The translations under genes and the position numbers were made by a program. A stretch of DNA of 64,000 nt from Escherichia phage CJ20. Location of the stretch: the sequence record MT533174.1. One strand, 5' to 3'. Positions 20,386-64,000 of the stretch are shown piece by piece (the first letter of the stretch is position 1; each line of letters starts with the position of its first letter). The notes beneath the pieces are model-generated. The model saw only the letters and a list, made by a program, of their open reading frames with translations. It searched no databases and was not told the DNA's origin.

Positions 20386-21884
20386 TATATTTCCACCTGT
20401 TTAATGATATAATTGAATTTTTCGTCTGCATACCGCTGAATACGTTCTAATGCGTGTTTCAGTGCAAAGTTAATATGAACATATTTCTTTTTAGCGTTTG
20501 CTGATTTGGGTTTGACCCCCATATCATCCACGATGTCCCACACGTTTGCGGTCGATTTGGATTCATGTTTTCGAAGTACACGACCAATTGTCTGGAGTAC
20601 AATTACCTTTGACTTGACCGGGTGAGCGAAAATAATATGATGGAGGTTTTTAACGGAAATCCCCGTTGAGAATACACCGTATGAAGCTACAACAATAATT
20701 CCCTTTCCATTCTCTGCCATGACCTTCAGAGCATTACGGGTTTCGGTATCAACTTCCCCGGAAACATAATACACATTCTCATGACCGGCTTCCTTAAGCA
20801 TTTCAAACATCGATTTACCGTGCTCGATATTCTTAAACATCAAAAAGACGTTTTCATCTTTTTTAGCAAGCTTAAGTGCAAGGTTTGTTACCCATTTATT
20901 TCTACGCGTAGCTTTCGTAATTACCTTGATTTCATCCTGATAAGTTTTACCTTTCATTTTAACGGTGAATTCATCAGGATATCGAAGGAAAATACTATTT
21001 ATCTTAAGGTCAGTAACTTGTCCTTCATCCATTAATTGGGATGTGGATACTGGTTTAAAGATATCACCAAACAGACCCATATATTGCATAAGGTTTGCTT
21101 TGCCGTCACGGAGAGAACCAGAGAGACCAAATTTAAACATACAATTAGTCAGGCCTTCGATAACGGTCGAAATGGATTTACCAGTAGCCATATGGCATTC
21201 ATCATTCATAAACTGACCGAACTGTGAAAACCATTCTTTAGGTTGTTTTACTGCCGTCTGATAAGTAGACACATAAATCATTGCATCCGAATCACGTTTA
21301 GTTCCGGAACGGATACCGAGACAAGCTTCTCGAGGGAACAATCTATAATCAACAAAGTCATTAATCATCTGGTCAACGAGCGCAGTTGTAGGTACAAGGA
21401 TAAGAACCTTGCCTTCATAGTTCTCGAGATAATATCGCGCCAGAAGCGCCTGGATGAGGCTTTTACCTGCAGATGTAGGTAAGTTCAATATTTTTCTTCT
21501 GTTGACCAGACCGTCGTATACGGCGTCTGTTTGGTACCAATGGGGAGTAATCTTGGTATGGCCTGAATAGATTTCTTTTGACTCGACCCATTTGTCGAAT
21601 TCTTCGCGAGAGATTTCTTCTTTCTCGGTGATTTGCGGGTCAATCCAAAATGAATAACCAAACTGGTCAGCGAATTTTTTAATCTGGTTAACTAAGCCGT
21701 ACGGTAATTTACGGTTATAATCCAGGAGACGGATACGTCCGTCCCAAACTCCCGCTTTGAATTTAGGGTTAAACCGATAGTTTTCGGCTTCAAAACTGAA
21801 ATAGTCACGGAGTTCATAGAAGATGCTATCTTCACATTCAACATGTACATGACTAAAATTTAAAAAGTTGATTTTGATATCCAT
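20385..21884 (-). CDS. uvsW: UvsW DNA/RNA helicase (SF2)
   Basis: Similarity to recalled T4 UvsW (MDIKxxF, LNLPTSAGKSLIQALLARYYLENYEGK, DECH box, VASYGVFSTGISVKNLHH); start at MDIK; TATAAATA on - strand at 21913-21920. Confidence 0.92.
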   Translation of the reverse strand: MDIKINFLNFSHVHVECEDSIFYELRDYFSFEAENYRFNPKFKAGVWDGRIRLLDYNRKLPYGLVNQIKKFADQFGYSFWIDPQITEKEEISREEFDKWVESKEIYSGHTKITPHWYQTDAVYDGLVNRRKILNLPTSAGKSLIQALLARYYLENYEGKVLILVPTTALVDQMINDFVDYRLFPREACLGIRSGTKRDSDAMIYVSTYQTAVKQPKEWFSQFGQFMNDECHMATGKSISTVIEGLTNCMFKFGLSGSLRDGKANLMQYMGLFGDIFKPVSTSQLMDEGQVTDLKINSIFLRYPDEFTVKMKGKTYQDEIKVITKATRRNKWVTNLALKLAKKDENVFLMFKNIEHGKSMFEMLKEAGHENVYYVSGEVDTETRNALKVMAENGKGIIVVASYGVFSTGISVKNLHHIIFAHPVKSKVIVLQTIGRVLRKHESKSTANVWDIVDDMGVKPKSANAKKKYVHINFALKHALERIQRYADEKFNYIIKQVEI

Positions 21885-25212: not shown

Positions 25213-26485
25213 CCAGTGGTGGAAGTTTAACACCAAGATAAGAACTCAATTGGCTTTGGTTAGCCATCTTATCCATATCAGCCCCATCAATAAGGCGGGC
25301 TTCTTTATCATCTTTAGCAACGGTGTAGGGGTTAGCTGTCAAAGCATAACGAGCTAACAGTGCAACCGTAGGCTGTAAGCTTTCAGGGTCAACAATAACC
25401 TTGAATTCCCCAACCGATGTATCACCCTCATCATCAACTTCGCTAAGCCCTTCCGTATAAGGCGCATAATACAAAGATGCGACCGTCTGACCCTCGCCCA
25501 TATCCGCATTTACGCCAACAATAACATAATCGCATGGACTATTCATATCTGCATAAAGAGGCAAACCGTTCTTCAGAACACCATAGGCCAATTCATCCTG
25601 GTCTTCCTTTTTCTCAACCCAGCCAGAAGCGGCTAAAATAGCTGCACAACGGGAAGAAGCAACCGCATATGTACCAGCAAACGAAGTCTGACGTTGAACT
25701 GCAGAATTCATTTCACACATATAATAATACAGGGTTCGTGCGCGGTCCTGTGCGTTATCATATTTCGGGTCAGTGAGATTCAACACACCTTTTTCAGAAA
25801 CACCTTGTACCTTGAAGCGAGAACTAACAGTAATAAGGGATTGCAATACATCCTTATTAATTTCCTCTGCCATTTGAATGCCGAGAATATTATCGATGAA
25901 GTCTGTTGCATCGAAACCGTTTGCTTCCAGGTCCTGAGCAAGCTCGACAGTTAAAGAAGTTTTCAACTTTCTGGATTTAACTTCAGTCTGCCATTTATCG
26001 ATACGGAAACCAGCTTCAGCAATTTCAGGATGCCCCTTTTCAAATTTATCAGTGAAAGCAGCATCTGACATCATTCTTATATGTCCAGCAGCAATGGCTT
26101 CAGAAATAACTTCACCTAAATCAGTTTCGAGTGTCCCGGCAAAGGGGGAAGCTTCCAGAACTTTGAATACAACGCTTTCAAACTGAAACATATCGCCGAC
26201 TGCATAAGCTTCGTCTTTGTTCGTAAATTCTGGGATATTCTTACGCTCGAACATACCAATCTGGCCCGCGAATGTCGCTCCACCAAGATATGTCATTTTA
26301 TCATCTGGGGTCAGAACACGAACACCATACAACGCTGCAACAGGCTGGGTAGTTTTCTGTTCGGCAACGAGTGCTTTAAAAATTCGTTTATTCGTGGCCT
26401 GGGTATAAGAAAGCAAATTAGGACGGGCGACCTGGTTGGCCGCCGTTAATGTTGATTCGTGAATTAGTGCGTTAATCTTTTGCAT
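25202..26485 (-). CDS. Capsid vertex protein gp24, divergent paralog
   Basis: 427 aa; roughly half the residues align with the adjacent gp24 ORF and with T4 gp24/gp23-fold motifs (QPVAALYGV, SRKLKT, TVELAQDLEANGF, EINKDVLQSLITVS, YAPYTEG, ANPYTVAKDDKEAR); ATG directly follows stop of upstream gp24 (TAAATG). Confidence 0.85.
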   Translation of the reverse strand: MQKINALIHESTLTAANQVARPNLLSYTQATNKRIFKALVAEQKTTQPVAALYGVRVLTPDDKMTYLGGATFAGQIGMFERKNIPEFTNKDEAYAVGDMFQFESVVFKVLEASPFAGTLETDLGEVISEAIAAGHIRMMSDAAFTDKFEKGHPEIAEAGFRIDKWQTEVKSRKLKTSLTVELAQDLEANGFDATDFIDNILGIQMAEEINKDVLQSLITVSSRFKVQGVSEKGVLNLTDPKYDNAQDRARTLYYYMCEMNSAVQRQTSFAGTYAVASSRCAAILAASGWVEKKEDQDELAYGVLKNGLPLYADMNSPCDYVIVGVNADMGEGQTVASLYYAPYTEGLSEVDDEGDTSVGEFKVIVDPESLQPTVALLARYALTANPYTVAKDDKEARLIDGADMDKMANQSQLSSYLGVKLPPLEKE

Positions 26486-27766
26486 TTACGCCTCATAAAT
26501 GATTGGCGGAAGTTTAACACCGAGCAGATAAGACATATTGCTCTGGCCGGCCATTAAATCCATATTAGTTGCATCGATAATACGAGCTTCTTTGTCGTCT
26601 TTAGCAACGGTGTAAGGGTTAGCTGAAAGTGCATATCGAACCATCAGGGAGATAGATGGCTGCAAACTGTCTGGGTCCACAATGACCTTAAACGCACCTA
26701 CGTGTTCTTCATCATCTAAGTCCAGGCCTTCGGTATAAGGAGCATAGAAGATTGAGCCTACGACTTCGTTTCCACCGTAATTTTCTTTAACGCCAACGGT
26801 TACATAATCCAATGGACTGTTAACATCACAGAATACAGGAAGACCATTAATCAAATAACCGTACGCTGTTTCAGGAAGCCATTGCTCGTCTTCAGGTTTA
26901 TGCTTCAGCCAGCCAGAACCAGCCAACATAGCAGCAACACGGCTAGAGGCAACAACAAAGGTACCGGAATAAGATGTAGTTTTCTGAATTTCGGAGTTCA
27001 TTTCGCAAACCAGTTCGTACAGTTTACGTGCACCTTCTGGAGCTGCATCATATGTTAAATCGATGGTGCCATTGTCAGAAACGCCAGTTACTTTATAACG
27101 CTTGGAAACGGTAATAAGAGACTGAAGAACATCTTTGTTAATTTCATCTGCCATAATAGTGGCAAGCAGGTCTTCCAAGAAAGCAGGAGCGTTAAACCCA
27201 TTTGCTTCCATATCCTGAGCAAGTTCAACAGTTAGTGCAGTTTTCAATTTACGTGTTTTAACCGGAGCATTCCATTTATTAACCTGGAATACAGCATTAC
27301 TAATCTCAACATCACCGGCTTCAAATTTCTCGGTGTGTGCCGCATCAGGAACCAAACGAATGGTTAATGCAATAAGACCTTCTTGCAGAACATCAGATAA
27401 CACTGTTTCTTTGGTCGATGCAAATGGATTATCAACCAGAGCTTTATAAACGGTATTTTGATATTTTACATATTCACCTTTAGCTACAGGCTGAGTGGCT
27501 GTAGTTAATTCTGGAATAGTTGTACGGTCTTTAGAACCGACTTCGCCACCATAAGTAGCACCAGTCTGGAAACTGAATTCATTATCAGGAGTAAGATATT
27601 TAACACCGTACAGAGCCGCAACTGGCTGGTTAGTACGTTGTTCAGCGATAATATCGCGGTAAATCAATTTGGTTGTAGCACGGGTCAAAGCAACAAGATT
27701 CGGGCGGCCCAAGGAGTTGCTGGTAGTGGTAGTTGACTCGCGCAGTAATTTGTTAATCTTTGCCAT
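26486..27766 (-). CDS. 24: Capsid vertex protein gp24 (T4-like ortholog)
   Basis: 426 aa; high similarity to recalled T4 gp24 (MAKINxLLRESTTTxSNSxGRPNLVALTRATTKLIY...); TATAAATA on - strand at 27793-27800. Confidence 0.92.
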   Translation of the reverse strand: MAKINKLLRESTTTTSNSLGRPNLVALTRATTKLIYRDIIAEQRTNQPVAALYGVKYLTPDNEFSFQTGATYGGEVGSKDRTTIPELTTATQPVAKGEYVKYQNTVYKALVDNPFASTKETVLSDVLQEGLIALTIRLVPDAAHTEKFEAGDVEISNAVFQVNKWNAPVKTRKLKTALTVELAQDMEANGFNAPAFLEDLLATIMADEINKDVLQSLITVSKRYKVTGVSDNGTIDLTYDAAPEGARKLYELVCEMNSEIQKTTSYSGTFVVASSRVAAMLAGSGWLKHKPEDEQWLPETAYGYLINGLPVFCDVNSPLDYVTVGVKENYGGNEVVGSIFYAPYTEGLDLDDEEHVGAFKVIVDPDSLQPSISLMVRYALSANPYTVAKDDKEARIIDATNMDLMAGQSNMSYLLGVKLPPIIYEA

Positions 27767-29785: not shown

Positions 29786-30604
29786 TTAAGAAATTCGTGA
29801 TGCTGCGAGAGCAGACAAGTCCGCGAAGGACAGGGTAGGCTTGGCGCCTTTTTCTTCAACTGCTTCTGAGATGTAATTCAGTGCCGCAGCATCGTCTACA
29901 GAATTATTTATAGCTGCTTCGGTGATAGGTTTTTCGGCGGTGTCTACCTGACCTTTAACCATTTCAACGATAGCGCCAATTTTGGTACCGAACGCATCGG
30001 AATAATCCATACCTTCTACCAGAGAACCAACTTTTTCTTTCTGAGATTCGGTCAGGTCTTTGGTCGCTTCAGTCAACGCAACTTCACGTTGGACATAATT
30101 GATATAAGCATCACGCTTAGCAACTTCTTCGAACAGATTAGCGGTTTCTTCTTTCTGTTCAGCCAGTTCTTCCTGCATTTCTGCAACAACATCAACAGAT
30201 TCTTCTGGAACAACAACGTTGTGCTCAACGAACAGTTCTTTCATGCCAGTAAACATGGATTCGAACAGGTCAGCTTTAATGCCACGGTCGACAGCCAGTT
30301 TGTTTTCAGCAAGCCATTCTTTAGCAACGTGGTCCAGGAATTTAGCTGCAGATTCTTTCAGTTTTTTCTCTGCTTTTTCGTCGGATTCTTCTTTATTCTT
30401 TTCGACTTCTTCTTCAGCTTTTTCAGCAATTTTCTGAATGTGAGATTCTGCCAGTTTGATGGCGTGTTGCTTGACGGTAGCTTCGAATACAGTGCCGAAG
30501 GTAGCTTTCGCTTCCGGGGACAAATTAACTGATTCGAAAATACTATCGAGAGCAACGGAAGCATCGATGTTTTGAGCTTCAGAAATGAGTTGTTCTTTAA
30601 GCAT
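29786..30604 (-). CDS. 22: Prohead core scaffold protein
   Basis: 272 aa, acidic coiled-coil protein between 21 and 23; TATAAATA on - strand at 30634-30641. Confidence 0.85.
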   Translation of the reverse strand: MLKEQLISEAQNIDASVALDSIFESVNLSPEAKATFGTVFEATVKQHAIKLAESHIQKIAEKAEEEVEKNKEESDEKAEKKLKESAAKFLDHVAKEWLAENKLAVDRGIKADLFESMFTGMKELFVEHNVVVPEESVDVVAEMQEELAEQKEETANLFEEVAKRDAYINYVQREVALTEATKDLTESQKEKVGSLVEGMDYSDAFGTKIGAIVEMVKGQVDTAEKPITEAAINNSVDDAAALNYISEAVEEKGAKPTLSFADLSALAASRIS

Positions 30605-30633
30605 TTTGTAGTCCTGTTGTTAAGATATACATT

Positions 30634-30641
30634 TATTTATA
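30634..30641 (-). promoter_or_regulatory. Late promoter core TATAAATA upstream of gene 22
   Basis: Octamer on - strand. Confidence 0.45.
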
Positions 30642-31275
30642 ACGTCTTTAAAGCCTCTGCGAGAGCCATAAAGGCGTCATCGGCACTGGTATCGGCTTCC
30701 GCCGTTTGTGATTCTGTAATCTGCTTTGGTTTGACCCAAGCGTCCGGAGCACTTGGCCCCCATACTGCGTCTACTCCAACCGTCAATTTAAAACCTTCAT
30801 TAACGATGCTATAACCTTTTGCTGATTTAGTCAGGGAACCAAGTCCACGACTAGATACGCCAGGAATCCAACCTGCTCTTATATTCGCAGCAAGTTTATC
30901 ACCTGGACCATGGTCGCCTTCGATAATACGCGCGCGGCCATATACATCATTCCCTTTCCACCACATTTCCTCGATAATAATTGCTGCCTGCATAGGGTCA
31001 ACGTTTGCGCGAGGTGGATGGTTTAATTCTCCAAGAGACTGCTTGGTTTCAACCTGTTCGGCGATATAGTCCGCAACGGCTTTTTCCAAAATATGTTTAG
31101 GATAAAGTCGTTTATTACGGTTAACAACTTCAGCTTGTAGGAAAATACCTTCAATATAAAGTCCTGGCTTTAAACCGCTGCTGGAACCATCATGAGATTC
31201 CAACATCGGTACACCATCTTTAATTTCGCCCGGTTGACCCCAGTGTTCGATTAGTAACTCTGGTTTCTGTTCCAT
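30637..31275 (-). CDS. 21: Prohead core protease
   Basis: 212 aa (same length as T4 gp21); conserved position. Confidence 0.88.
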   Translation of the reverse strand: MEQKPELLIEHWGQPGEIKDGVPMLESHDGSSSGLKPGLYIEGIFLQAEVVNRNKRLYPKHILEKAVADYIAEQVETKQSLGELNHPPRANVDPMQAAIIIEEMWWKGNDVYGRARIIEGDHGPGDKLAANIRAGWIPGVSSRGLGSLTKSAKGYSIVNEGFKLTVGVDAVWGPSAPDAWVKPKQITESQTAEADTSADDAFMALAEALKTL

Positions 31276-31703
31276 TAATCAAGTCCGAATGCTTTACGCT
31301 TAGCTCGAGCTTTTTTGCGCTTGCGCTCTGCTCTGATTTGCGTAGATGGGTTTGCTCTTTTCGTTTTAGTAGCCAGACGGGCAATTTGACGACGTTTAGC
31401 TTTAGAAAGACCAGTTGTTTGGAAAGCATTACGCTTACGAGTAGCTCGGTCTTTTGTGCGGGTTAACTCACCGCGAGACGATACATGTTTAACGATAAAT
31501 TCGTTAAGCTGAACACCTTCATTCAGAGCGCCGATAACCGTTGCTTTTTCGTATTCACCGGCTGCAAACATGTTTTCTACAATAATATTTATATCGTCTT
31601 TTTCTAAGGCTTCAGATAATGAATCAAATTGTCCCTGAGCTTCTTCGGAAACACTTTCGATGTTTTCAAGAGTTAATTCGTAATCATCAGGGATAATAAA
31701 CAT
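31275..31703 (-). CDS. 68: Prohead core protein
   Basis: 142 aa, basic C-terminus, position between 67 and 21. Confidence 0.7.
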
Positions 31704-31963
31704 TATTCATCGTCCTCATCATCATCATCGTCGCCTTCGTCAGCGTCATCAGATTCTTTTTTGTCTTTCTTTTCTGCTTTACCGTCGTCCTTGCCTTCAT
31801 CTTCATCTTCTTTAGGCTCTTCGCCTTCAATCATGATGGAACGTGCAATTTCAATCTTACGTTCTTCAATCAAACTACCGCATACTGGGCCAATGTTTTC
31901 AGCAAAATATTTGCGAACGGCTACGAGGTCGTTTGATTTAATGGCTTCAAATAAATCATCCAT
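31703..31963 (-). CDS. 67: Prohead core protein
   Basis: 86 aa with highly acidic C-terminus, position between 20 and 68. Confidence 0.65.
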
Positions 31964-33537
31964 TAGAAATCCTCTTCTTCTTCTTCAGGGTTTTGGAAAC
32001 GAGCCTCTTTGGACTCCAATTCAATTTGCTTAGCTTCTTGATTAATTTCTTCATCAGACATCTGGAGGAAATCCTTCATAGCCGTTTGATGCGAAATATA
32101 TTTACCGATAAACGGTTCAGCCATCGTTAGCATATTGATTCTGCGTTCCATGATTTCTGCATCTTTCATTTCGGTGAAATAGCTATCACGGTTGAACGTA
32201 ACTTTAATATTATTTAGTTCCTTGTCCCATTCCTCTTCTGAAATAACTTTTTTCAGGATAAGGTTTGTTTTAAGCGGGTCGAGGAAAACTTCTTCAAATT
32301 TATTCTGTAGCTGCCTAATCCATTTAGCGAAATTCAATTCATCACGAGTAATTGTCGCGCCTGCATCAAACATAACGCCACTGTTTTGGTCATTAGGGAT
32401 ACGAGATAATGGAATTCGGAGAGCCTGATATAGGTTGTTCTTAAACCAACGAACATCGTCCATATCCGACATGCCTTGTGCACCCGGGAGTGTATCAACT
32501 TCAGTGACTGCTTTACCATCACGACGTTGCAACCAATAGTCTTCTGTCATTGACATGTTGTGCTGTTGGTTTTTGATTTTACCCGTGGTTGCATCATATA
32601 CGACACGGTTTTTCATCGTGTTCATAATATGTTGCATATGTGCTGCTGCTTTACGAGACGGCATATTCCCGGTATCGATATAAAAGACTCGGCGGTCTGG
32701 AGCACGAGTTATACGATAAATGACTAAAGCATCTTCTAATAGTTTTAATTGGTTTGCAGGTTTAATTGCTCGTTGCAAGTATCCGATGATATTCTTGCCA
32801 CAACAATCGAGTAATCCAGAATGCGCATATACAATCGCCGCGCGAGGAATTTTTATTTTAGTACCTGCTTCATATATACGACCATCGGCACAATAACTTT
32901 CATGGCCAGTATCGTATACAAAATATTCTCTGTAACCGTCGACAATTTTTGTACCATTTTCCATGCGTGTAACGATTTCACGGATGAACTGGATTTGTCT
33001 TGGGTCAAGGCGACGAAGTTCTTGAACTCCATCTTTAAGTTTTGATGGGTTGATAATTTTGTGGAAGAAAATTCGAGAATCCACATACCAACGTTTAAAA
33101 TGGTCAGAACCTTTACGCTCGAAATTAAGGAGGTTATTGACTTCCAAAAATTCTTCGAGGATTCGGTCTTTAATTTTCTGACTAAATTCGGTAGCATCAA
33201 GGTTAAGAGATACAACATCTTTACCGTCTTCAAAAACGATAGCATCAGACACAATTTCTTGCACCGCGTTATCAACTTCATAATTATTTAGTAGGTTGCG
33301 GTAAGTGTCAATTAATTCCCTGGTATTTTTTACTTCAGGTTCATTGCTCCCGAACATCTGTTGCATCAATGCATTATACGGGACGTTTTGTTCTTGTGAC
33401 TCAATTTCGCGAGCCCCATCATCAAACTTCGGCCCGGTCATTGACTCTAAATTATTTTTTTCTTGTTGCTTATATTCTTGTTCATCTTCTTTAGCCCAAG
33501 GCTTAAGAAAATTTAGTATTGTGTTAAAACCTGCCAT
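31963..33537 (-). CDS. 20: Portal vertex protein
   Basis: 524 aa (same length as T4 gp20); synteny; TATAAATA on - strand at 33586-33593. Confidence 0.92.
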
Positions 33538-33585
33538 TAGAGTCTCCGAAGTTTGGGAAATGAGGCCGAAGCCTCATAATAACTT

Positions 33586-33593
33586 TATTTATA
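33586..33593 (-). promoter_or_regulatory. Late promoter core TATAAATA upstream of gene 20
   Basis: Octamer on - strand between gp19 stop and gp20 start; hairpin GAGGCcgaaGCCTC at 33562-33575 lies in the leader. Confidence 0.45.
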
Positions 33594-33594
33594 C

Positions 33595-34086
33595 TTATTC
33601 CCACCAGTCAATTGCGAACGTTGCTTCGAACGTTTCAATTTCGTTGTTCGAATCCCAATCCATCTGGACTTCCCCAACGTTGGTTGGCCACATGCCGGTA
33701 ATAACAACTTCTTTCGTAACAGTTTTGCCATCACGATGGAACTGGCGGACAGTAGCAGTTTTCTTATAATCAGCAGGAGCTGCACCGGTAATTTCGTTAG
33801 TCATACCGTGACACAGATTTTGCCAATCAACAATTGCTTGACGAACTTTATGAGCATCGTCGTTATAAATCGTAATAGTCCAGTCATCAAATGTACGGTC
33901 ACCCGCTACGTTGATTTTACGGTTCATGTAACCGACCGGAACTTTTTCTACAATGCCTGCTGGCATCGGGGCTGCTTTACAATGGAAAGCAAAGTTTTTA
34001 CCCAGGAATGGGATTTCGACTTCGAACAGGTTAGGGCGAGCAAAGTCGCCGGATTCGAAAGCGCGTGTGATATCGGTCAACTCCAT
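33595..34086 (-). CDS. 19: Tail tube protein
   Basis: 163 aa from internal ATG 34086 (SD AAGAGGA); matches recalled T4 gp19 start (TRAFESGDFARPNLFxVEI...TFEATFAIDWWE); track start 34137 gives an unsupported extension. Confidence 0.9.
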   Translation of the reverse strand: MELTDITRAFESGDFARPNLFEVEIPFLGKNFAFHCKAAPMPAGIVEKVPVGYMNRKINVAGDRTFDDWTITIYNDDAHKVRQAIVDWQNLCHGMTNEITGAAPADYKKTATVRQFHRDGKTVTKEVVITGMWPTNVGEVQMDWDSNNEIETFEATFAIDWWE

Positions 34087-34138
34087 TAAGGAATCCTCTT
34101 TATAGACACAGGTCGCGCGAACGCGTCCCTGATGCATG

Positions 34139-59770: not shown

Positions 59771-60370
59771 ATGTCAGGTTTATATAATCAAACTAACACG
59801 ACTAACTTTATATTAGAGGTAAGCGATTCAAACCTCACACAGACTTTTAAACTCAACGTTCAAGACGTTACCCTCCCAGGGGTTCACATTCCTGTGACGG
59901 ATGTCCCCGGCGGAACGCAAGGTATAAATCGCTCCAGTCTTCCTGGTAGTACAATAGAATTCGACCCGCTGATTGTTAACTTTCTGTGTGACAAAGACCT
60001 AAGAGCATGGCTTGACATCTATAAATGGATGCTCTCGCTCAACAACTACATCACACACGAATCAAAAGCATGGCATCCAAAGGGTCGTCCTGAAGCGGTC
60101 ACGCTTCATATCTTAGATAACAACAAGGACAAAATTGTCATGTCAATCCATTACTATGGAGCATGGCCGTCCGACCTGTCAGAGATTCAGTATTCATATA
60201 AAGAAGATTCTGACCCGGCTATCAACGCAACAGCAACTTTTAACTTTAAGTCTTTTGCTGTAGAAATTGATGGTATAATAATAGAAGGTAGACCACAGAT
60301 TGATAGTAATGCAGCAATGCAACAGGAAATCAGGTCTAAGTCAATGCATCCATCTATGAGAAACGTATGA
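59771..60370 (+). CDS. 3: Tail completion / sheath stabiliser protein
   Basis: ORF between gp2 and gp1 (T4 order 4-2-3-1); start set to internal ATG 59771 because the track's upstream extension runs through a promoter-like repeat. Confidence 0.65.
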   Translation: MSGLYNQTNTTNFILEVSDSNLTQTFKLNVQDVTLPGVHIPVTDVPGGTQGINRSSLPGSTIEFDPLIVNFLCDKDLRAWLDIYKWMLSLNNYITHESKAWHPKGRPEAVTLHILDNNKDKIVMSIHYYGAWPSDLSEIQYSYKEDSDPAINATATFNFKSFAVEIDGIIIEGRPQIDSNAAMQQEIRSKSMHPSMRNV

Positions 60371-61043
60371 AATTAATTGCGATTGTGGGTAAAAAACGCA
60401 GTGGTAAAGATACGACTGCTGATTATGTTATTAGTCAAAACGGAACAAAGTGGCAGCTTGCAGGTCCGATTAAAGAAGCGCTTTATAAAGCGTGGATTCG
60501 TCAAGACCTGCCACACAATTTGACCCTGGAAAATTTTGATGGGCAAGGTTATGACCGTGAAAAAACCTTGATAATGAACAACACCGAAGCTTATATTCTT
60601 CTGGTTGATGCTCTTGAATGGTTAAAACAACAATATAATCTTGACCTTCCGAATCCAGATATGGTTCGTAAAATTATTGAATTTCACACACTAAATAATG
60701 TTGAGCCCTGGACGGTTAGACGTTTCATGCAGACCCTTGGAACTGACATCGTTTGTACAGAGTTCGACAGCATGTTTTGGATTAAAACTTTTGCATGCGA
60801 TTATCTTGACAACCTCTATTCTGGATATAAATATTACGTTGTCCCGGATGTTCGCCAAAAGAACGAACTTGATTCGCTTCGGGCGATGGGTGCTACAATA
60901 ATCTTTGTAGAACGCGATGAAGCAAATCATTCTACTGATACACACATTACGGAAGCTGGACTTCCACCACTAGCTAGTGACATTGTTATTAAAAACGATG
61001 GCACACTCGATGAACTTTTTGATAAAATTAATAAGGTAATATA

Positions 61044-61044
<1 letters not shown>
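60367..61044 (+). CDS. 1: Deoxynucleoside monophosphate kinase
   Basis: 225 aa; P-loop GKKRSGKDT; position upstream of 57A. Confidence 0.85.
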
Positions 61045-61728
<684 letters not shown>

Positions 61729-61729
<1 letters not shown>

Positions 61730-61768
61730 TGTACAAATGAGTGTAGGTGCAGTATTATGCTCCTACAC
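61729..61768 (+). promoter_or_regulatory. Promoter/stem-loop cassette (GTGTAC, 18 nt, TATTAT in hairpin loop) upstream of first IP-like gene
   Basis: Inverted repeat GTGTAGG (61741-61747) / CCTACAC (61762-61768). Confidence 0.45.
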
Positions 61769-61789
61769 CAACGAACAAACGGAGTTAAA

Positions 61790-62122
61790 ATGAACATAAA
61801 GACTTACAACGAGTTTTTAGCCGAATCCGCCATCAATGAGACCAAATCAATTGATGATAGTGAAGGCTCTCTGAAATTTGGTTTAACCAAAAATGCAGAT
61901 GGTGTTTTCTTTCAGATTGGTAATGAACGTTTTCAAACGTCCAAATATTCCAAAGCTGCAGTTGAAGCTGTCCTGAAATCTGGTGGCAAGTGGAAAGGCA
62001 AAGAAGGTACTAAAGAAATTGGCATCGCTGTTGACGGTGGTATGGCTTATTTTAAAATTGGCGATGAACAATTTATTATGTCTGCTCGCGGACGTAAAGA
62101 ACTGGCAAAACTTTATAAATAA
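61790..62122 (+). CDS. Internal-protein-like (IP) protein with N-terminal capsid-targeting sequence
   Basis: N-terminus MNIKTYNEFLAE resembles T4 IP capsid-targeting sequence MKTYQEFIAE; SD GGAG at 61781; start chosen inside track ORF 61757. Confidence 0.6.
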   Translation: MNIKTYNEFLAESAINETKSIDDSEGSLKFGLTKNADGVFFQIGNERFQTSKYSKAAVEAVLKSGGKWKGKEGTKEIGIAVDGGMAYFKIGDEQFIMSARGRKELAKLYK

Positions 62123-62130
62123 GGTTTCTT

Positions 62131-62403
62131 ATGAAAACTTTCAATGAATTTTTCAACGAGTCCCAACTGAATGAAGAAGTAAAAATTAGTAAAGCAGTCA
62201 AAGCTATGATTGACAATATCAATCACCTGTACAGCATTGACTTGACTGACCATATAACAATTGGTAACAAACGCAACTTTTTCGCGTTTGACATCTCTGA
62301 ACTTGACCAGAACCAAATTAATAACATTGAGCGTTTTGCCAATGACAAGGGTCTCCGCCATGAGACAGCTGGTTATAAAAAATATGCAATTTATCTAAAA
62401 TAG
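62131..62403 (+). CDS. Internal-protein-like (IP) protein with capsid-targeting sequence
   Basis: N-terminus MKTFNEFFNE. Confidence 0.6.
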   Translation: MKTFNEFFNESQLNEEVKISKAVKAMIDNINHLYSIDLTDHITIGNKRNFFAFDISELDQNQINNIERFANDKGLRHETAGYKKYAIYLK

Positions 62404-62411
62404 GATTTCAA

Positions 62412-62711
62412 ATGCAAACTTTTCATGAATTTTTGGTAGAAAACAATTACCTGGCGGAAGCAAAAACCTGGCCTCTGGGTCTTCAGAAGAAAAACACCTA
62501 TAAATGGGTTGACTTCAAAGGTAAAGGCGACGCTGAAGACTTTGACCAGCTGCGTAAAAATGGTTATACCTTCCTTGACTCTAACTATAACAAAATTACC
62601 TCTTTTAGTCAGAAGTCAAGCATTGCCTTCATTGAAACTGGTAAGAACTCTCCTAAAGATATTTCTGACGACTTCGCCGCTTATGGTGTAATTCGTGGTT
62701 CAAAAATGTAA
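62412..62711 (+). CDS. Internal-protein-like (IP) protein with capsid-targeting sequence
   Basis: N-terminus MQTFHEFLVE. Confidence 0.6.
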   Translation: MQTFHEFLVENNYLAEAKTWPLGLQKKNTYKWVDFKGKGDAEDFDQLRKNGYTFLDSNYNKITSFSQKSSIAFIETGKNSPKDISDDFAAYGVIRGSKM

Positions 62712-62749
62712 TGTACATGATGGGATAGTTGCAGTATAATTATCCCATC
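62711..62749 (+). promoter_or_regulatory. Promoter/stem-loop cassette (ATGTAC, 18 nt, TATAAT in hairpin loop)
   Basis: Inverted repeat GATGGGATA (62719-62727) / TATCCCATC (62741-62749). Confidence 0.45.
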
Positions 62750-62766
62750 AACTACTGGAGCTACTA

Positions 62767-63045
62767 ATGAAAACTTATCAAGAATTTATTAACGAATCAA
62801 TTAGTCACCCGGATATGCTGGAAGACCTGAAAGGACATCTGATGGTTAAGGCCAAACCGGTTGATGGTGGCGCATTTGAGTTGTTTCTTGTTAAAGGCGA
62901 AAACGGTCCTGATAACAAGAAAGTTTCAGCAATGATGTTGACTAAAGGTTACAAAGTCAGTTCTTCCTGGAATGCTCCATTCACTTACGCGGTAAGCCCT
63001 CGTGAACTGAAAAAAGTTAAAGCTGGACAATATACAAAAATTTAG
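62767..63045 (+). CDS. Internal-protein-like (IP) protein with capsid-targeting sequence
   Basis: N-terminus MKTYQEFINE, nearly identical to the T4 IP targeting sequence. Confidence 0.65.
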   Translation: MKTYQEFINESISHPDMLEDLKGHLMVKAKPVDGGAFELFLVKGENGPDNKKVSAMMLTKGYKVSSSWNAPFTYAVSPRELKKVKAGQYTKI

Positions 63046-63083
63046 TGTACGTGATGGGATAGTTGTAGTATGATTATCTCATC
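63045..63083 (+). promoter_or_regulatory. Promoter/stem-loop cassette (GTGTAC, 18 nt, TATGAT in hairpin loop)
   Basis: Inverted repeat GATGGGATA (63053-63061) / TATCTCATC (63075-63083), one mismatch. Confidence 0.45.
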
Positions 63084-63102
63084 AACTACTGAGGAGAATA
63101 AA

Positions 63103-63288
63103 ATGAAACGTTGCGAATTAATTAGAAATGTTACTGCCCTTGTTGCTGTTACCACTTTTGGTTTTAGCATGTTTGCTGGCTTTATGTTGAATATGCTTTC
63201 AACTTCTGAGAATATAATCTCTTTAGTAGTTGCATTTTTAATTGGTTCAATCTCTTTCGTTATGGATAAAATCTCTAAAGGTGAGTAA
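63103..63288 (+). CDS. Small hydrophobic (two predicted TM helices) protein
   Basis: 61 aa from ATG 63103 with SD GAGGAG; hydrophobic stretches LVAVTTFGFSMFAGFML and IISLVVAFLIGSISFV. Confidence 0.4.
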   Translation: MKRCELIRNVTALVAVTTFGFSMFAGFMLNMLSTSENIISLVVAFLIGSISFVMDKISKGE

Positions 63289-63289
63289 A

Positions 63290-63670
63290 ATGTATAAAGT
63301 GTATGCGGATTATCAGGCAAATCCATCTGAAAAACCAGATTGCCAAATTGGGTGGGCGCATGACACCCTGCTTGAAGCGGTAGATGAAGCTCAAAAATTA
63401 GGGTATAGTTATGTGGATATTGTTCAACCTGGTGGAACAGTTATTACTCTTGAAGAATTCAAGAATATCAAAACAAACTTTTTACTCTTTGCTGGCGATA
63501 ACTATTATCCTCGTGGCGGTTATGCTGACTTAATTGCAAAAGCGGCGACTGAAGATGAACTGCGTGATATCATTAAAGAAAACGAGAAGAAGCCTTGTTA
63601 TGGTTCCAACCGTTTTGACTGGTGGCAGATTGTTAATGCCAATACACATACTATTGTTGATGAGGGCTGA
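63290..63670 (+). CDS. Hypothetical protein
   Basis: 126 aa from ATG 63290 (SD AAGGTGAG); track start 63242 is TTG. Confidence 0.5.
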   Translation: MYKVYADYQANPSEKPDCQIGWAHDTLLEAVDEAQKLGYSYVDIVQPGGTVITLEEFKNIKTNFLLFAGDNYYPRGGYADLIAKAATEDELRDIIKENEKKPCYGSNRFDWWQIVNANTHTIVDEG

Positions 63671-63672
63671 TT

Positions 63673-64000
63673 ATGAATATTAAATTTGGTCAGACCATCC
63701 CTAAAGGTTATGTGATTGAAATTGAAACCTGGGAAAATGATGGTGACAACTATAAAACCCAAACGGTATTTGGCGTAGAAGAACAAGAAATCCAACAGTA
63801 CAAATATATCCTGGAACTTTTCCATGGTTCACATTGTAACAACCGCAATAAATGTGGTAATTCAGAATGGGATGTGGTTAAACACTTGGTTATCGCCCAC
63901 ATTGCATCTGGTGTAAAATCTGGGCAGTTGACTTATGAATTTTTGGATAAAGTTCTTGGTATTGCAGATTTGGAAGCCTTGTTGAATGACGATGATGAAG
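63673..64000 (+). CDS. Hypothetical protein, 5' fragment (continues beyond window)
   Basis: ATG 63673 right after previous stop; open to window end; Cys/His cluster HGSHCNNRNKCGNSEW. Confidence 0.45.
   Translation, partial: MNIKFGQTIPKGYVIEIETWENDGDNYKTQTVFGVEEQEIQQYKYILELFHGSHCNNRNKCGNSEWDVVKHLVIAHIASGVKSGQLTYEFLDKVLGIADLEALLNDDDE

Follow-up and report, generated by a model that had tools for sequence, protein, structure and literature searches.

[quoted passage not shown] 1994; Mullaney and Black 1996; Bair et al. 2007; Silas et al. 2025). A 10-residue capsid-targeting sequence (CTS) suffices for packaging in T4 (PMC9026906), and the summary of the work of Mullaney and Black given in that paper names residues 4 and 7 as critical for targeting and residues 8 and 10 for processing. 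Of the T4 proteins Ip1, Ip2 and Ip3, each inhibits a different one of the GmrSD type IV restriction enzymes (PMC12373910). Within the T4-type genomes IP genes lie in two loci, either between 57B and trna.4 or next to e/denV, and descriptions of multi-gene loci with a conserved leader go back to the hypervariable IP locus reported by Repoila et al. 1994, as this work is cited in PMC3012670, PMC9026906, PMC2839356 and PMC12373910. Proteins that likewise travel ready-made in the head and enter the cell with the DNA include DarA/DarB/Hdf of P1, the internal core proteins of T7 and the ejection proteins of SPN3US/phiKZ, and in the phiKZ-like phages the propeptides are also removed after Glu by a gp21-related protease (PMC5694885); these proteins have no sequence relationship to the ones described below, are mostly large, and use other targeting signals.

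The locus between 57B and trna.4

The DNA analyzed here is a stretch of 64,000 nucleotides from Escherichia phage CJ20 (MT533174.1), hereafter the window. Four consecutive plus-strand open reading frames, which we designate A-D, occupy positions 61790-63045 directly after 57B, and each starts with a CTS. The gene order, 57A-57B-A-B-C-D-trna.4-trna.3, corresponds to 57A-57B-ipI-trna.4-trna.3 in T4, so that the four genes fill the slot of the single T4 ipI gene. The upstream border is the 57B/Acb1 gene (61274-61729, plus strand; Pfam PF23474 Acb1, E 1.5e-59; syntenic with T4 57B), and an anti-CBASS gene thus adjoins the IP array, whereas the downstream border is a gene for a trna.4-like small membrane protein (63103-63288, plus strand; phrog_1692; syntenic with T4 and VR7). 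The preliminary description of this DNA had reported four small reading frames after 57B with these N-termini, and a single ipI at this place in T4, and both statements are confirmed by the coordinates and translations and by the T4 gene order; its starting point for the array, 61729, is where the 57B stop codon ends and not a gene start. Base composition at the locus is unremarkable, and Rfam and tRNA scans of 61000-64000 returned no matches.

All four genes are preceded by a Shine-Dalgarno sequence at 8-9 nt, and they leave hardly any spacer in the interval. Although the longest reading frame of gene A (61790-62122) starts at 61757, the ATG at 61790 was chosen, which has GGAG 8 nt ahead and agrees with orthologues that start at MKTY. 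Gene B (62131-62403) and gene C (62412-62711) follow after spacers of 8 nt each, which hold no promoter or hairpin element, and gene D (62767-63045) closes the array; like their borders, all lie on the plus strand.

Three intergenic elements on the plus strand, ahead of A, ahead of D and ahead of trna.4, combine a promoter with a hairpin and are homologous to the spacers that flank ipI in T4. The first (61730-61770, found by promoter scan and RNA folding) consists of an early-promoter-like TGTACA-17-TATTAT (61730-61758) overlapping a hairpin (61738-61770; -16.5 kcal/mol, z -2.2), and its architecture is that of the T4 57B-ipI spacer. In the second (62712-62760), TGTACA-17-TATAAT (62712-62740) is accompanied by a 14-bp hairpin (62718-62750; -19.5 kcal/mol, z -3.3) that encloses the -10 box, followed by CAACTACTGGAG, which carries the ribosome-binding site. 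This element constitutes DNA repeat D2 and is 89% identical to the third (63046-63094), which is homologous to the T4 ipI-trna.4 spacer and is made up of TGTACG-17-TATGAT (63046-63074), a hairpin (63052-63084; -18.7 kcal/mol, z -4.1) and CAACTACTGAGGAG. Another DNA repeat, D1, spans the ribosome-binding site and the first codons of the genes. An exact-match search also located TATAAATA, the T4 late-promoter consensus, at 62114-62121 on the plus strand, 10 nt ahead of gene B and overlapping the stop codon of gene A.

Early-promoter/stem-loop elements at IP loci have already been described (PMC2839356, PMC4122927), and the closest named system is that of the PeSL (promoter-early stem-loop) cassettes of T4-type phages (Arbiol et al. 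2010; Comeau et al. 2014), with which the present elements share a promoter of 17-nt spacing that overlaps a stable hairpin, repetition between small variable genes, and cassettes that differ among close relatives. Unlike the PeSLs of RB49, of which the IP-associated elements are considered analogues rather than homologues (PMC2839356), those described here are of the T4 early-promoter type TGTAC[A/G]...TAT[A/T/G]AT, with AT-rich stems and no U-run after them. The elements would supply transcription signals and probably also the homology for gain, loss and exchange of cassettes between phages.

Such turnover is visible among relatives. Comparison of seven near-identical Gaprivervirus loci revealed six cassette combinations, all with a CTS: A-Ip9-C-D (gene B being Ip9, as discussed below), the same set with Ip6 or with Ip5 added, sets lacking C or lacking D, and one with a 73-aa IP. 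Genes A and Ip9 are constant in all seven, which is less typical of arms-race cargo, whereas C, D, Ip5, Ip6 and the 73-aa IP come and go. PSD2001, a 98% relative, carries three more IPs at the second IP locus, and a paralogue of C lies there. We identify the locus as the ipI-site IP locus of a T4-type phage of the VR7/SP18-like kind (Gaprivervirus) with the four cassettes A, Ip9, C and D. The novelty that the preliminary description implied does not hold, since the type of locus has been known since 1994 and GenBank already has this very array, as in VR7 (HM563683), where ip9 is annotated; at least 16 deposited Gaprivervirus genomes carry the same array at 95-98% identity.

Capsid-targeting sequences and the prohead protease

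The pattern [KQRN]T[YFW]x[ED]F[ILFVM]xE has exactly four matches in the six-frame translation of the 64-kb window, all of them at the N-termini of A-D, against an expectation from shuffled sequences of 0.00 (mononucleotide) to 0.01 (triplet) per window, which bears out the proposed resemblance to the T4 CTS. The shared form is about M-K-T-Y/F-x-E-F-I/L-x-E with aromatic residues at positions 4 and 7, and it appears as MNIKTYNEFLAE in A, where two extra residues (MNI-) stand ahead of the motif, as MKTFNEFFNE in B, as MQTFHEFLVE in C and as MKTYQEFINE in D. The last of these differs by one residue from the T4 IPII/IPIII leader, MKTYQEFIAE; the attribution of that leader to all three T4 proteins is right for IPII and IPIII and needs correction for IPI, which starts MKTFKEFTSTTTPVSTITE. 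At the critical positions 4, 7, 8 and 10 the four proteins have Y/F, F, L/I/F and E, respectively. The conserved residues are encoded by different codons among A-D (Y by TAC/TAT, F by TTC/TTT, E by GAG/GAA), and therefore conservation operates at the protein level and is not only that of a shared DNA block.

Candidate sites for the gp21 protease, of the form (L/I)-x-E, are LAE-12 in A, LVE-10 plus a second LAE at residues 14-16 in C, and INE-10 in D. The candidate site of B is atypical (FNE-10, with an alternative LNE at 13-15): it has F rather than I/L at P3 of the canonical site, and close relatives carry L instead of the targeting-critical F7, so that the efficiency with which B is packaged or processed is uncertain.

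The cognate protease is encoded in the window. A tblastn search with T4 gp21 identified the prohead protease gene at 30646-31269 on the minus strand (88% identity over 208 aa, E 3.5e-124), within a block of core genes at 29792-31963 on the same strand in which gp22, gp68 and gp67 are 74%, 68% and 60% identical to their T4 counterparts; gp20, gp67, gp68, gp22, gp23 and gp24 adjoin gp21. The genes of the array are thus internal-protein-like, as had been proposed, in their CTS, their position in the ipI slot, their flanking early-promoter/stem-loop elements, their variation in presence and absence, and the company of gp21 and scaffold genes. What they have in common with the T4 IPs extends to small size, the (L/I)-x-E site, mature domains unrelated to each other, and cassette turnover among close relatives; they differ from T4 in that four genes occupy a slot that holds one.

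The predicted mature proteins

Once the tag is removed, the mature proteins of A-D form four separate BLAST families, which clustering keeps apart, and hhalign comparison of the A family gives a probability of at most 0.3% against mature D and mature IPIII (0.1% for IPIII). This upholds the claim that the proteins are unrelated downstream of the leader. The mature domains also have no detectable sequence similarity to IPI*, IPII or IPIII, the BLAST matches being driven by the leader only, and the proposed BLAST and profile comparison, now carried out, reveals no IPI/II/III orthologue and identifies B as Ip9. Searches of Pfam, NCBIfam and PDB sequences with A-D gave nothing above threshold, and A and D bear no internal-protein label in any record or library examined.

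Gene A (110 aa; the VR7 ORF156c family, phrog_3966) has a predicted mature product of about 10.7 kDa and pI 9.3 and is 48-63% identical to relatives in five other genera. Its CTS is invariant across orthologues of only 50-60% identity, and the linker after it varies. The structural model (pLDDT 77) consists of two tandem repeats, each of four strands and a helix, that form one domain, and the predicted fold is a two-repeat, Whirly/PUR-like one, which suggests nucleic-acid binding rather than enzyme inhibition. The likeness to the Whirly, PUR-repeat and MRP1-MRP2 proteins, which bind single-stranded nucleic acids, is model-based with only 8-13% identity, and nearly equal scores are reached by SsgA and OspE/ErpC, proteins of similar topology that do not bind nucleic acids. 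A BFVD search recovered only the orthologue of A itself. Kinship with IPIII was rejected, because the BLAST match (E 9e-6 in a tiny database) is leader-driven and hhalign on the mature parts does not sustain it; the labels "profilin" for A and "homing endonuclease" for C in the EAWsc9 record were also discarded, neither having any profile support.

Gene B (90 aa) is composed of the CTS, a linker and a portable 72-aa domain, and it matches phrog_7673 "internal head protein" (E 1.7e-56) as well as the named Ip9 of RB15 and RB32, with 79-80% identity over the full length. The Ip9 genes of RB15, RB32 and RB33 (UniProt Q38376 and relatives) lie at the same locus; from their leader, MKTYQEFI(A/S)E, that of B has drifted, and the downstream FNE of Ip9 has become LNE. 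The mature protein is not basic (pI about 6.3), and its AF2 model has a pLDDT of 76.8. The Ip9 domain also occurs untagged in siphoviruses, free in Kagunavirus and Seuratvirus, and it constitutes the C-terminus of a 756-aa Kuttervirus protein; a 72-aa Kagunavirus protein aligns to residues 19-90 of B (51% identity, E 5e-30). These distant relatives came from tblastn, the word-indexed homologue search giving close relatives of B and C only. Literature searches for phage Ip9 or Ip5 by name yielded inositol-phosphate papers or no match.

Gene C (99 aa; VR7 ORF154c, phrog_2667 "internal head protein") encodes a predicted mature protein of pI 8.8. Gp136 of Morganella phage MP1, a member of its family with 41% identity and the leader MKTFQEFINE, was seen by mass spectrometry in purified virions, its peptides covering 59% of the sequence (PMC5384007). 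Gene D (92 aa; VR7 ORF153c, phrog_15565; predicted mature product about 9.0 kDa, pI 9.6) is a genus-restricted orphan by its sequence: it occurs in 17 phage records only, all Gaprivervirus-type, and a HMMER search of 1.84 billion representatives returned its own cluster plus spurious repeat proteins. The latter, P0031 and P0032, proved on inspection to be two long repetitive proteins with summed weak repeat matches and thus no homologues, and the match of D to phrog_3966 is leader-driven and rejected by hhalign on the mature parts.

Proposed packaging, delivery and roles

By the T4 precedent, A-D would each be made with an N-terminal CTS of 10-12 residues, which would dock the protein onto the gp22 scaffolding core during prohead assembly, and the gp21 of the phage would then cut after the Glu of (L/I)-x-E. 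The expected cuts are after E12 in A, after E10 in C (possibly also after E16), after E10 in D, and after E10 or the LNE at 13-15 in B, so that the mature chains would begin at Ser13 in A, Ser11 or Glu16 in B, Asn11 (or Ala17) in C and Ser11 in D. The mature proteins, of about 9-11 kDa, would stay in the head and be injected with the DNA, and hence be present before any phage gene is expressed; in the cell each would most likely neutralize one specific host defense, as T4 Ip1, Ip2 and Ip3 do against individual GmrSD-type modification-dependent nucleases. This packaged, gp21-processed, injected and probably anti-defense reading is supported and not new, and the account of locus and mechanism as a whole has in our view a probability of about 80%. 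We consider it very probable that at least three of the four proteins are packaged and processed, whereas an anti-defense function as their main role is only somewhat favored, by analogy to T4. That their targets are type IV restriction enzymes specifically is an analogy we would hold as possible and rather doubtful: nothing links A-D to GmrSD specifically, because no mature domain resembles IPI*, IPII or IPIII, and the GmrSD targets of the T4 proteins may not apply, because Gapriverviruses are reported to lack the known hmC synthase (PMC8056088).

An alternative that accepts packaging would make A-D mainly generic DNA counter-ions or packaging aids with no specific host target. Such a role has been suggested for the basic IPs of T4, which number roughly 1000 molecules and whose lysines contact DNA phosphates (PMC3012670), and it would suit the basic mature A, C and D, the predicted nucleic-acid-binding fold of A, and the presence of A and Ip9 in every locus compared. 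It would not account for Ip9, whose mature form is not basic and whose domain is found free in siphoviruses, nor does it need folded, family-specific domains or the rapid turnover of C, D, Ip5 and Ip6; specific targets are now known for each of the three T4 IPs (PMC12373910), and we judge it unlikely. Less probable still is that the CTS-like N-termini are simply the first 30 nt of a recombination cassette and the products early, cytoplasmic, accessory proteins that are never packaged. The early-type promoter ahead of each cassette unit, the extension of D1 into the first codons, and an Ip9 domain that works without a tag in other phages would agree with this, but the four leaders vary at synonymous and non-critical positions and yet keep T, Y/F, E, F and E, the CTS of family A persists across genera at 50% overall identity, a 10-residue CTS is enough in T4, and the C-family protein of MP1 is physically in virions. 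That some of A-D are chance reading frames, a thought raised by the lack of homologues of D outside one genus, can be dismissed in view of the ribosome-binding sites and tight packing, the protein-level conservation, including that of A across five other genera, the 193 records that hold homologues of B and likewise of C, and the perfect CTS and intact frame of D in 17 genomes.

Within the preferred reading of A-D as packaged and injected proteins, a further proposal, speculative and on balance improbable, is that A and D are mechanistically new injected effectors and Ip9 a pan-phage anti-defense domain. Gene A would then encode a nucleic-acid binder of Whirly/PUR-like type that enters with the genome and might protect single-stranded intermediates or the ends of DNA, or else titrate a defense that senses nucleic acids, rather than inhibit a GmrSD nuclease, and T4-like phages would have made the Ip9 domain a pre-loaded weapon by adding an 18-residue leader and linker. 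If true, this would provide a general rule for the origin of injected effectors, and the target of Ip9 could be found in simpler phages.

Arrays of this kind, in their existence, layout and likely role, belong to textbook T4 biology, so that the finding adds candidates and not a concept; its small additions are the predicted two-repeat fold of A, the untagged Ip9 domain in siphoviruses and the orphan status of D. Injected IPs act ahead of phage gene expression and so have a part in determining the range of wild strains open to a T4-type therapeutic phage. Targets are known for T4 Ip1-3 only, and new inhibitors may reasonably be sought in a phage that has at least four such proteins at this locus.

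Organization of the array

From the 57B stop codon (61727-61729) to a trna.4-like gene (63103-63288), the plus strand contains four tightly packed ORFs, namely gene A (61790-62122, 110 aa), gene B (62131-62403, 90 aa), gene C (62412-62711, 99 aa), and gene D (62767-63045, 92 aa), each with a Shine-Dalgarno sequence 8-9 nt 5' of its ATG. Their translations open with the leaders MNIKTYNEFLAE, MKTFNEFFNE, MQTFHEFLVE, and MKTYQEFINE, respectively, which match the N-termini in the preliminary description, and its observation of four consecutive small ORFs bearing capsid-targeting sequences (CTSs) is confirmed by the ORFs, the leaders, and the motif counts. A regular expression for the leader has exactly four matches when all six frames of the 64 kb window are translated, each at the N-terminus of one of A-D, and averages 0.00 matches over 200 mononucleotide shuffles and 0.01 over 200 triplet shuffles. 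The conserved leader residues are encoded by codons that differ among the four genes, so it is on the peptide that selection acts. One detail needs correction: MKTYQEFIAE, given as the leader of the T4 internal proteins (IPs) IPI, IPII, and IPIII alike, is actually that of IPII and IPIII only, with IPI beginning MKTFKEFTST… and possessing a longer propeptide.

Downstream of the leader the four proteins had been called unrelated to each other, and this is borne out at the sequence level: BLAST clustering places leader-less A-D in four separate families, among 13 unrelated families from seven Gaprivervirus loci, T4, MP1, and STP4-a, and profile comparison gives family A a probability of 0.1% against mature IPIII and 0.3% against mature D. 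Neither BLAST clustering nor, for family A, the profile comparison with IPIII revealed any resemblance of the mature domains to Ip1-3.

The array is preceded by gp3, gp1, 57A (Pfam GP57), and 57B, and followed by trna.4-like and trna.3-like genes; as the T4 order is 57A-57B-ipI-trna.4-trna.3, A-D occupy the ipI slot. For the trna.4-like membrane protein (ORF 63070-63288, +) the most likely start codon is ATG 63103 (MKRCELIR…), the one used in VR7 and T4, and not the earlier ATG at 63070 that opens the ORF. By its Pfam match (PF23474, E 1.5e-59), 57B (61274-61729, +) is clearly an Acb1 anti-CBASS phosphodiesterase, so that the IP array directly adjoins another anti-defence gene; several GenBank records still name it 'RNA ligase' or 'hypothetical'.

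Intergenic elements and cassette variation

Three elements of roughly 50 nt lie 5' of A, D, and trna.4, each combining a predicted early-type promoter, whose -10 box falls inside a stable hairpin, with a downstream CAACTACTG(G)AG containing a ribosome-binding site. The promoters and hairpins are TGTACA-17-TATTAT with -16.5 kcal/mol (z -2.2) before A, TGTACA-17-TATAAT with -19.5 kcal/mol (z -3.3) before D, and TGTACG-17-TATGAT with -18.7 kcal/mol (z -4.1) before trna.4, and the T4 57B-ipI and ipI-trna.4 spacers are built in the same way and share the 3' sequence with them. Just 5' of B, at 62114-62121 (+), stands TATAAATA, the T4 late-promoter consensus; the only other match in 60000-64000, at 60826-60833 (+), is inside gene 1 (dNMP kinase), and none lies immediately 5' of A or D.

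The array region is 95-98% identical to at least 16 deposited Gaprivervirus genomes, including PSD2001, P896, TH41, VR7, and SP18, and in the VR7 record (HM563683) A-D are ORF156c, ip9, ORF154c, and ORF153c, followed by an additional ip6. Seven near-identical loci present six gene combinations: A-Ip9-C-D (window and PSD2001), A-Ip9-C-D-Ip6 (VR7), A-Ip9-C-Ip5-D-Ip6 variant (TH44), A-Ip9-C-Ip5-Ip6 variant (EAWsc9), A-Ip9-Ip5-Ip6 (VR26), and A-Ip9-Ip5-Ip6 variant-73-aa IP (RZ). PSD2001, a 98% relative, has further CTS genes at its second IP locus near e/denV (32668-32970, 33495-33758, and 33816-34115; outside the window), comprising an IPII orthologue, a gene C paralogue, and an unrelated 99-aa protein; given these three, this phage type probably packages at least seven IPs.

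The individual proteins

Gene A belongs to phrog_3966 ('unknown function') and is hypothetical in all records listed except EAWsc9. Its orthologues (48-63% identity) in Edwardsiella, Citrobacter, Pectobacterium, Serratia, and Salmonella T4-type phages adjoin 57B or the endolysin gene, that is, occur at either IP locus, and an alignment of 12 orthologues shows leader residues K4, T5, Y6, F9, and E12 unchanged throughout, followed by a variable linker. The predicted Whirly/PUR-like fold points more to nucleic-acid binding than to enzyme inhibition, a caveat on the proposed mechanism.

Gene B is Ip9: it matches phrog_7673 'internal head protein' (E 1.7e-56), is present in 193 phage records, and shares 79-80% identity with the Ip9 proteins of RB15 (UniProt Q38376) and RB32. 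Where the T-even leader reads MKTYQEFI(A/S)E, that of gene B has diverged to MKTFNEFFNE, which places F at P3 of the protease site, and T-even FNE at residues 13-15 is LNE in the window (62131-62178), so that the cleavage site may lie 5 residues further downstream; Ip9 of PSD2001 (20403-20450) and VR7 (2903-2950) has L at the targeting-critical position 7. This atypical leader is a caveat on the packaging and processing mechanism. The Ip9 domain is also present, with no capsid-targeting leader, in the siphoviruses Kagunavirus UTEC10 (2504-2722) and, unannotated, Seuratvirus ECP2304 (about 2040-2264), and as the C-terminal 75 aa of the 756-aa gp085 (473-2740) of Kuttervirus aagejoakim, a protein with a CTS-like N-terminus, MAIPSFLNFLEE, whose gene adjoins structural genes. 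'Ip7' of Escherichia phage OLB35 (77 aa) shares only its last 35 residues with Ip9, at 80% identity, an overlap that suggests mosaic IP genes produced by recombination within coding regions.

Gene C, a member of phrog_2667 'internal head protein', is present in 193 records, and its 75% identical orthologue in STP4-a lies beside 57B. The homologue gp136 of Morganella phage MP1 (41% identical, leader MKTFQEFINE) also adjoins 57B and was detected in purified virions by 6 peptides covering 59% (PMC5384007). The labels 'profilin' for A (1566-1898) and 'homing endonuclease' for C (2188-2487) in EAWsc9 record PQ341120 have no Pfam, NCBIfam, or PHROG support and are likely annotation-pipeline errors. 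Gene D falls in phrog_15565 (unknown; 17 records, all Gaprivervirus-type phages), and exhaustive searching with HMMER against 1.84 billion representatives returned nothing beyond its own cluster except spurious repeat proteins.

Proposed packaging and role

The window encodes both the CTS-binding scaffold and the CTS-removing enzyme: the prohead protease gp21 (30646-31269, -; 88% identical to T4) is accompanied by gp20, gp67, gp68, gp22, gp23, and two tandem gp24-like vertex proteins (26498-27766 and 25214-26485, -; 70% and 55% identical to T4 gp24). The sequence-level steps of the mechanism are observed here, and for packaging, cleavage, injection, and targets we infer as most likely a route in which the early-type promoters would start synthesis, TATAAATA at 62114 would add late expression of B and C, the CTS would dock each protein on the scaffolding core, and gp21 would cut after the leader's Glu, leaving 9-11 kDa products that would stay in the head, enter the cell with the DNA, and neutralise specific host defences.

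Each of the T4 proteins Ip1, Ip2, and Ip3 blocks a different GmrSD type IV restriction enzyme, and GmrSD variants have been proposed as the targets of accessory proteins encoded at the two IP loci (Silas et al. 2025, PMC12373910); in light of these results, the preliminary interpretation of A-D as candidate injected anti-defence proteins is supported and is the accepted one. As a further caveat, Gapriverviruses are reported not to carry the known hmC synthase (PMC8056088), so that the modification-dependent nucleases they face may not be the GmrSD enzymes targeted in T4. Multi-gene IP loci of T-even phages have been on record since Repoila et al. 1994 (PMC3012670, PMC9026906), and their promoter/stem-loop elements were described by Arbiol et al. 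(PMC2839356), as restated by Comeau et al. 2014 (PMC4122927). The locus is therefore of a kind known before, and its phage lineage had been sequenced; the analysis adds minor new points, namely a Whirly/PUR-like fold predicted for A, D as an orphan, the divergence of the Ip9 leader, and the occurrence of a leaderless Ip9 domain both in siphoviruses and within the Kuttervirus protein.
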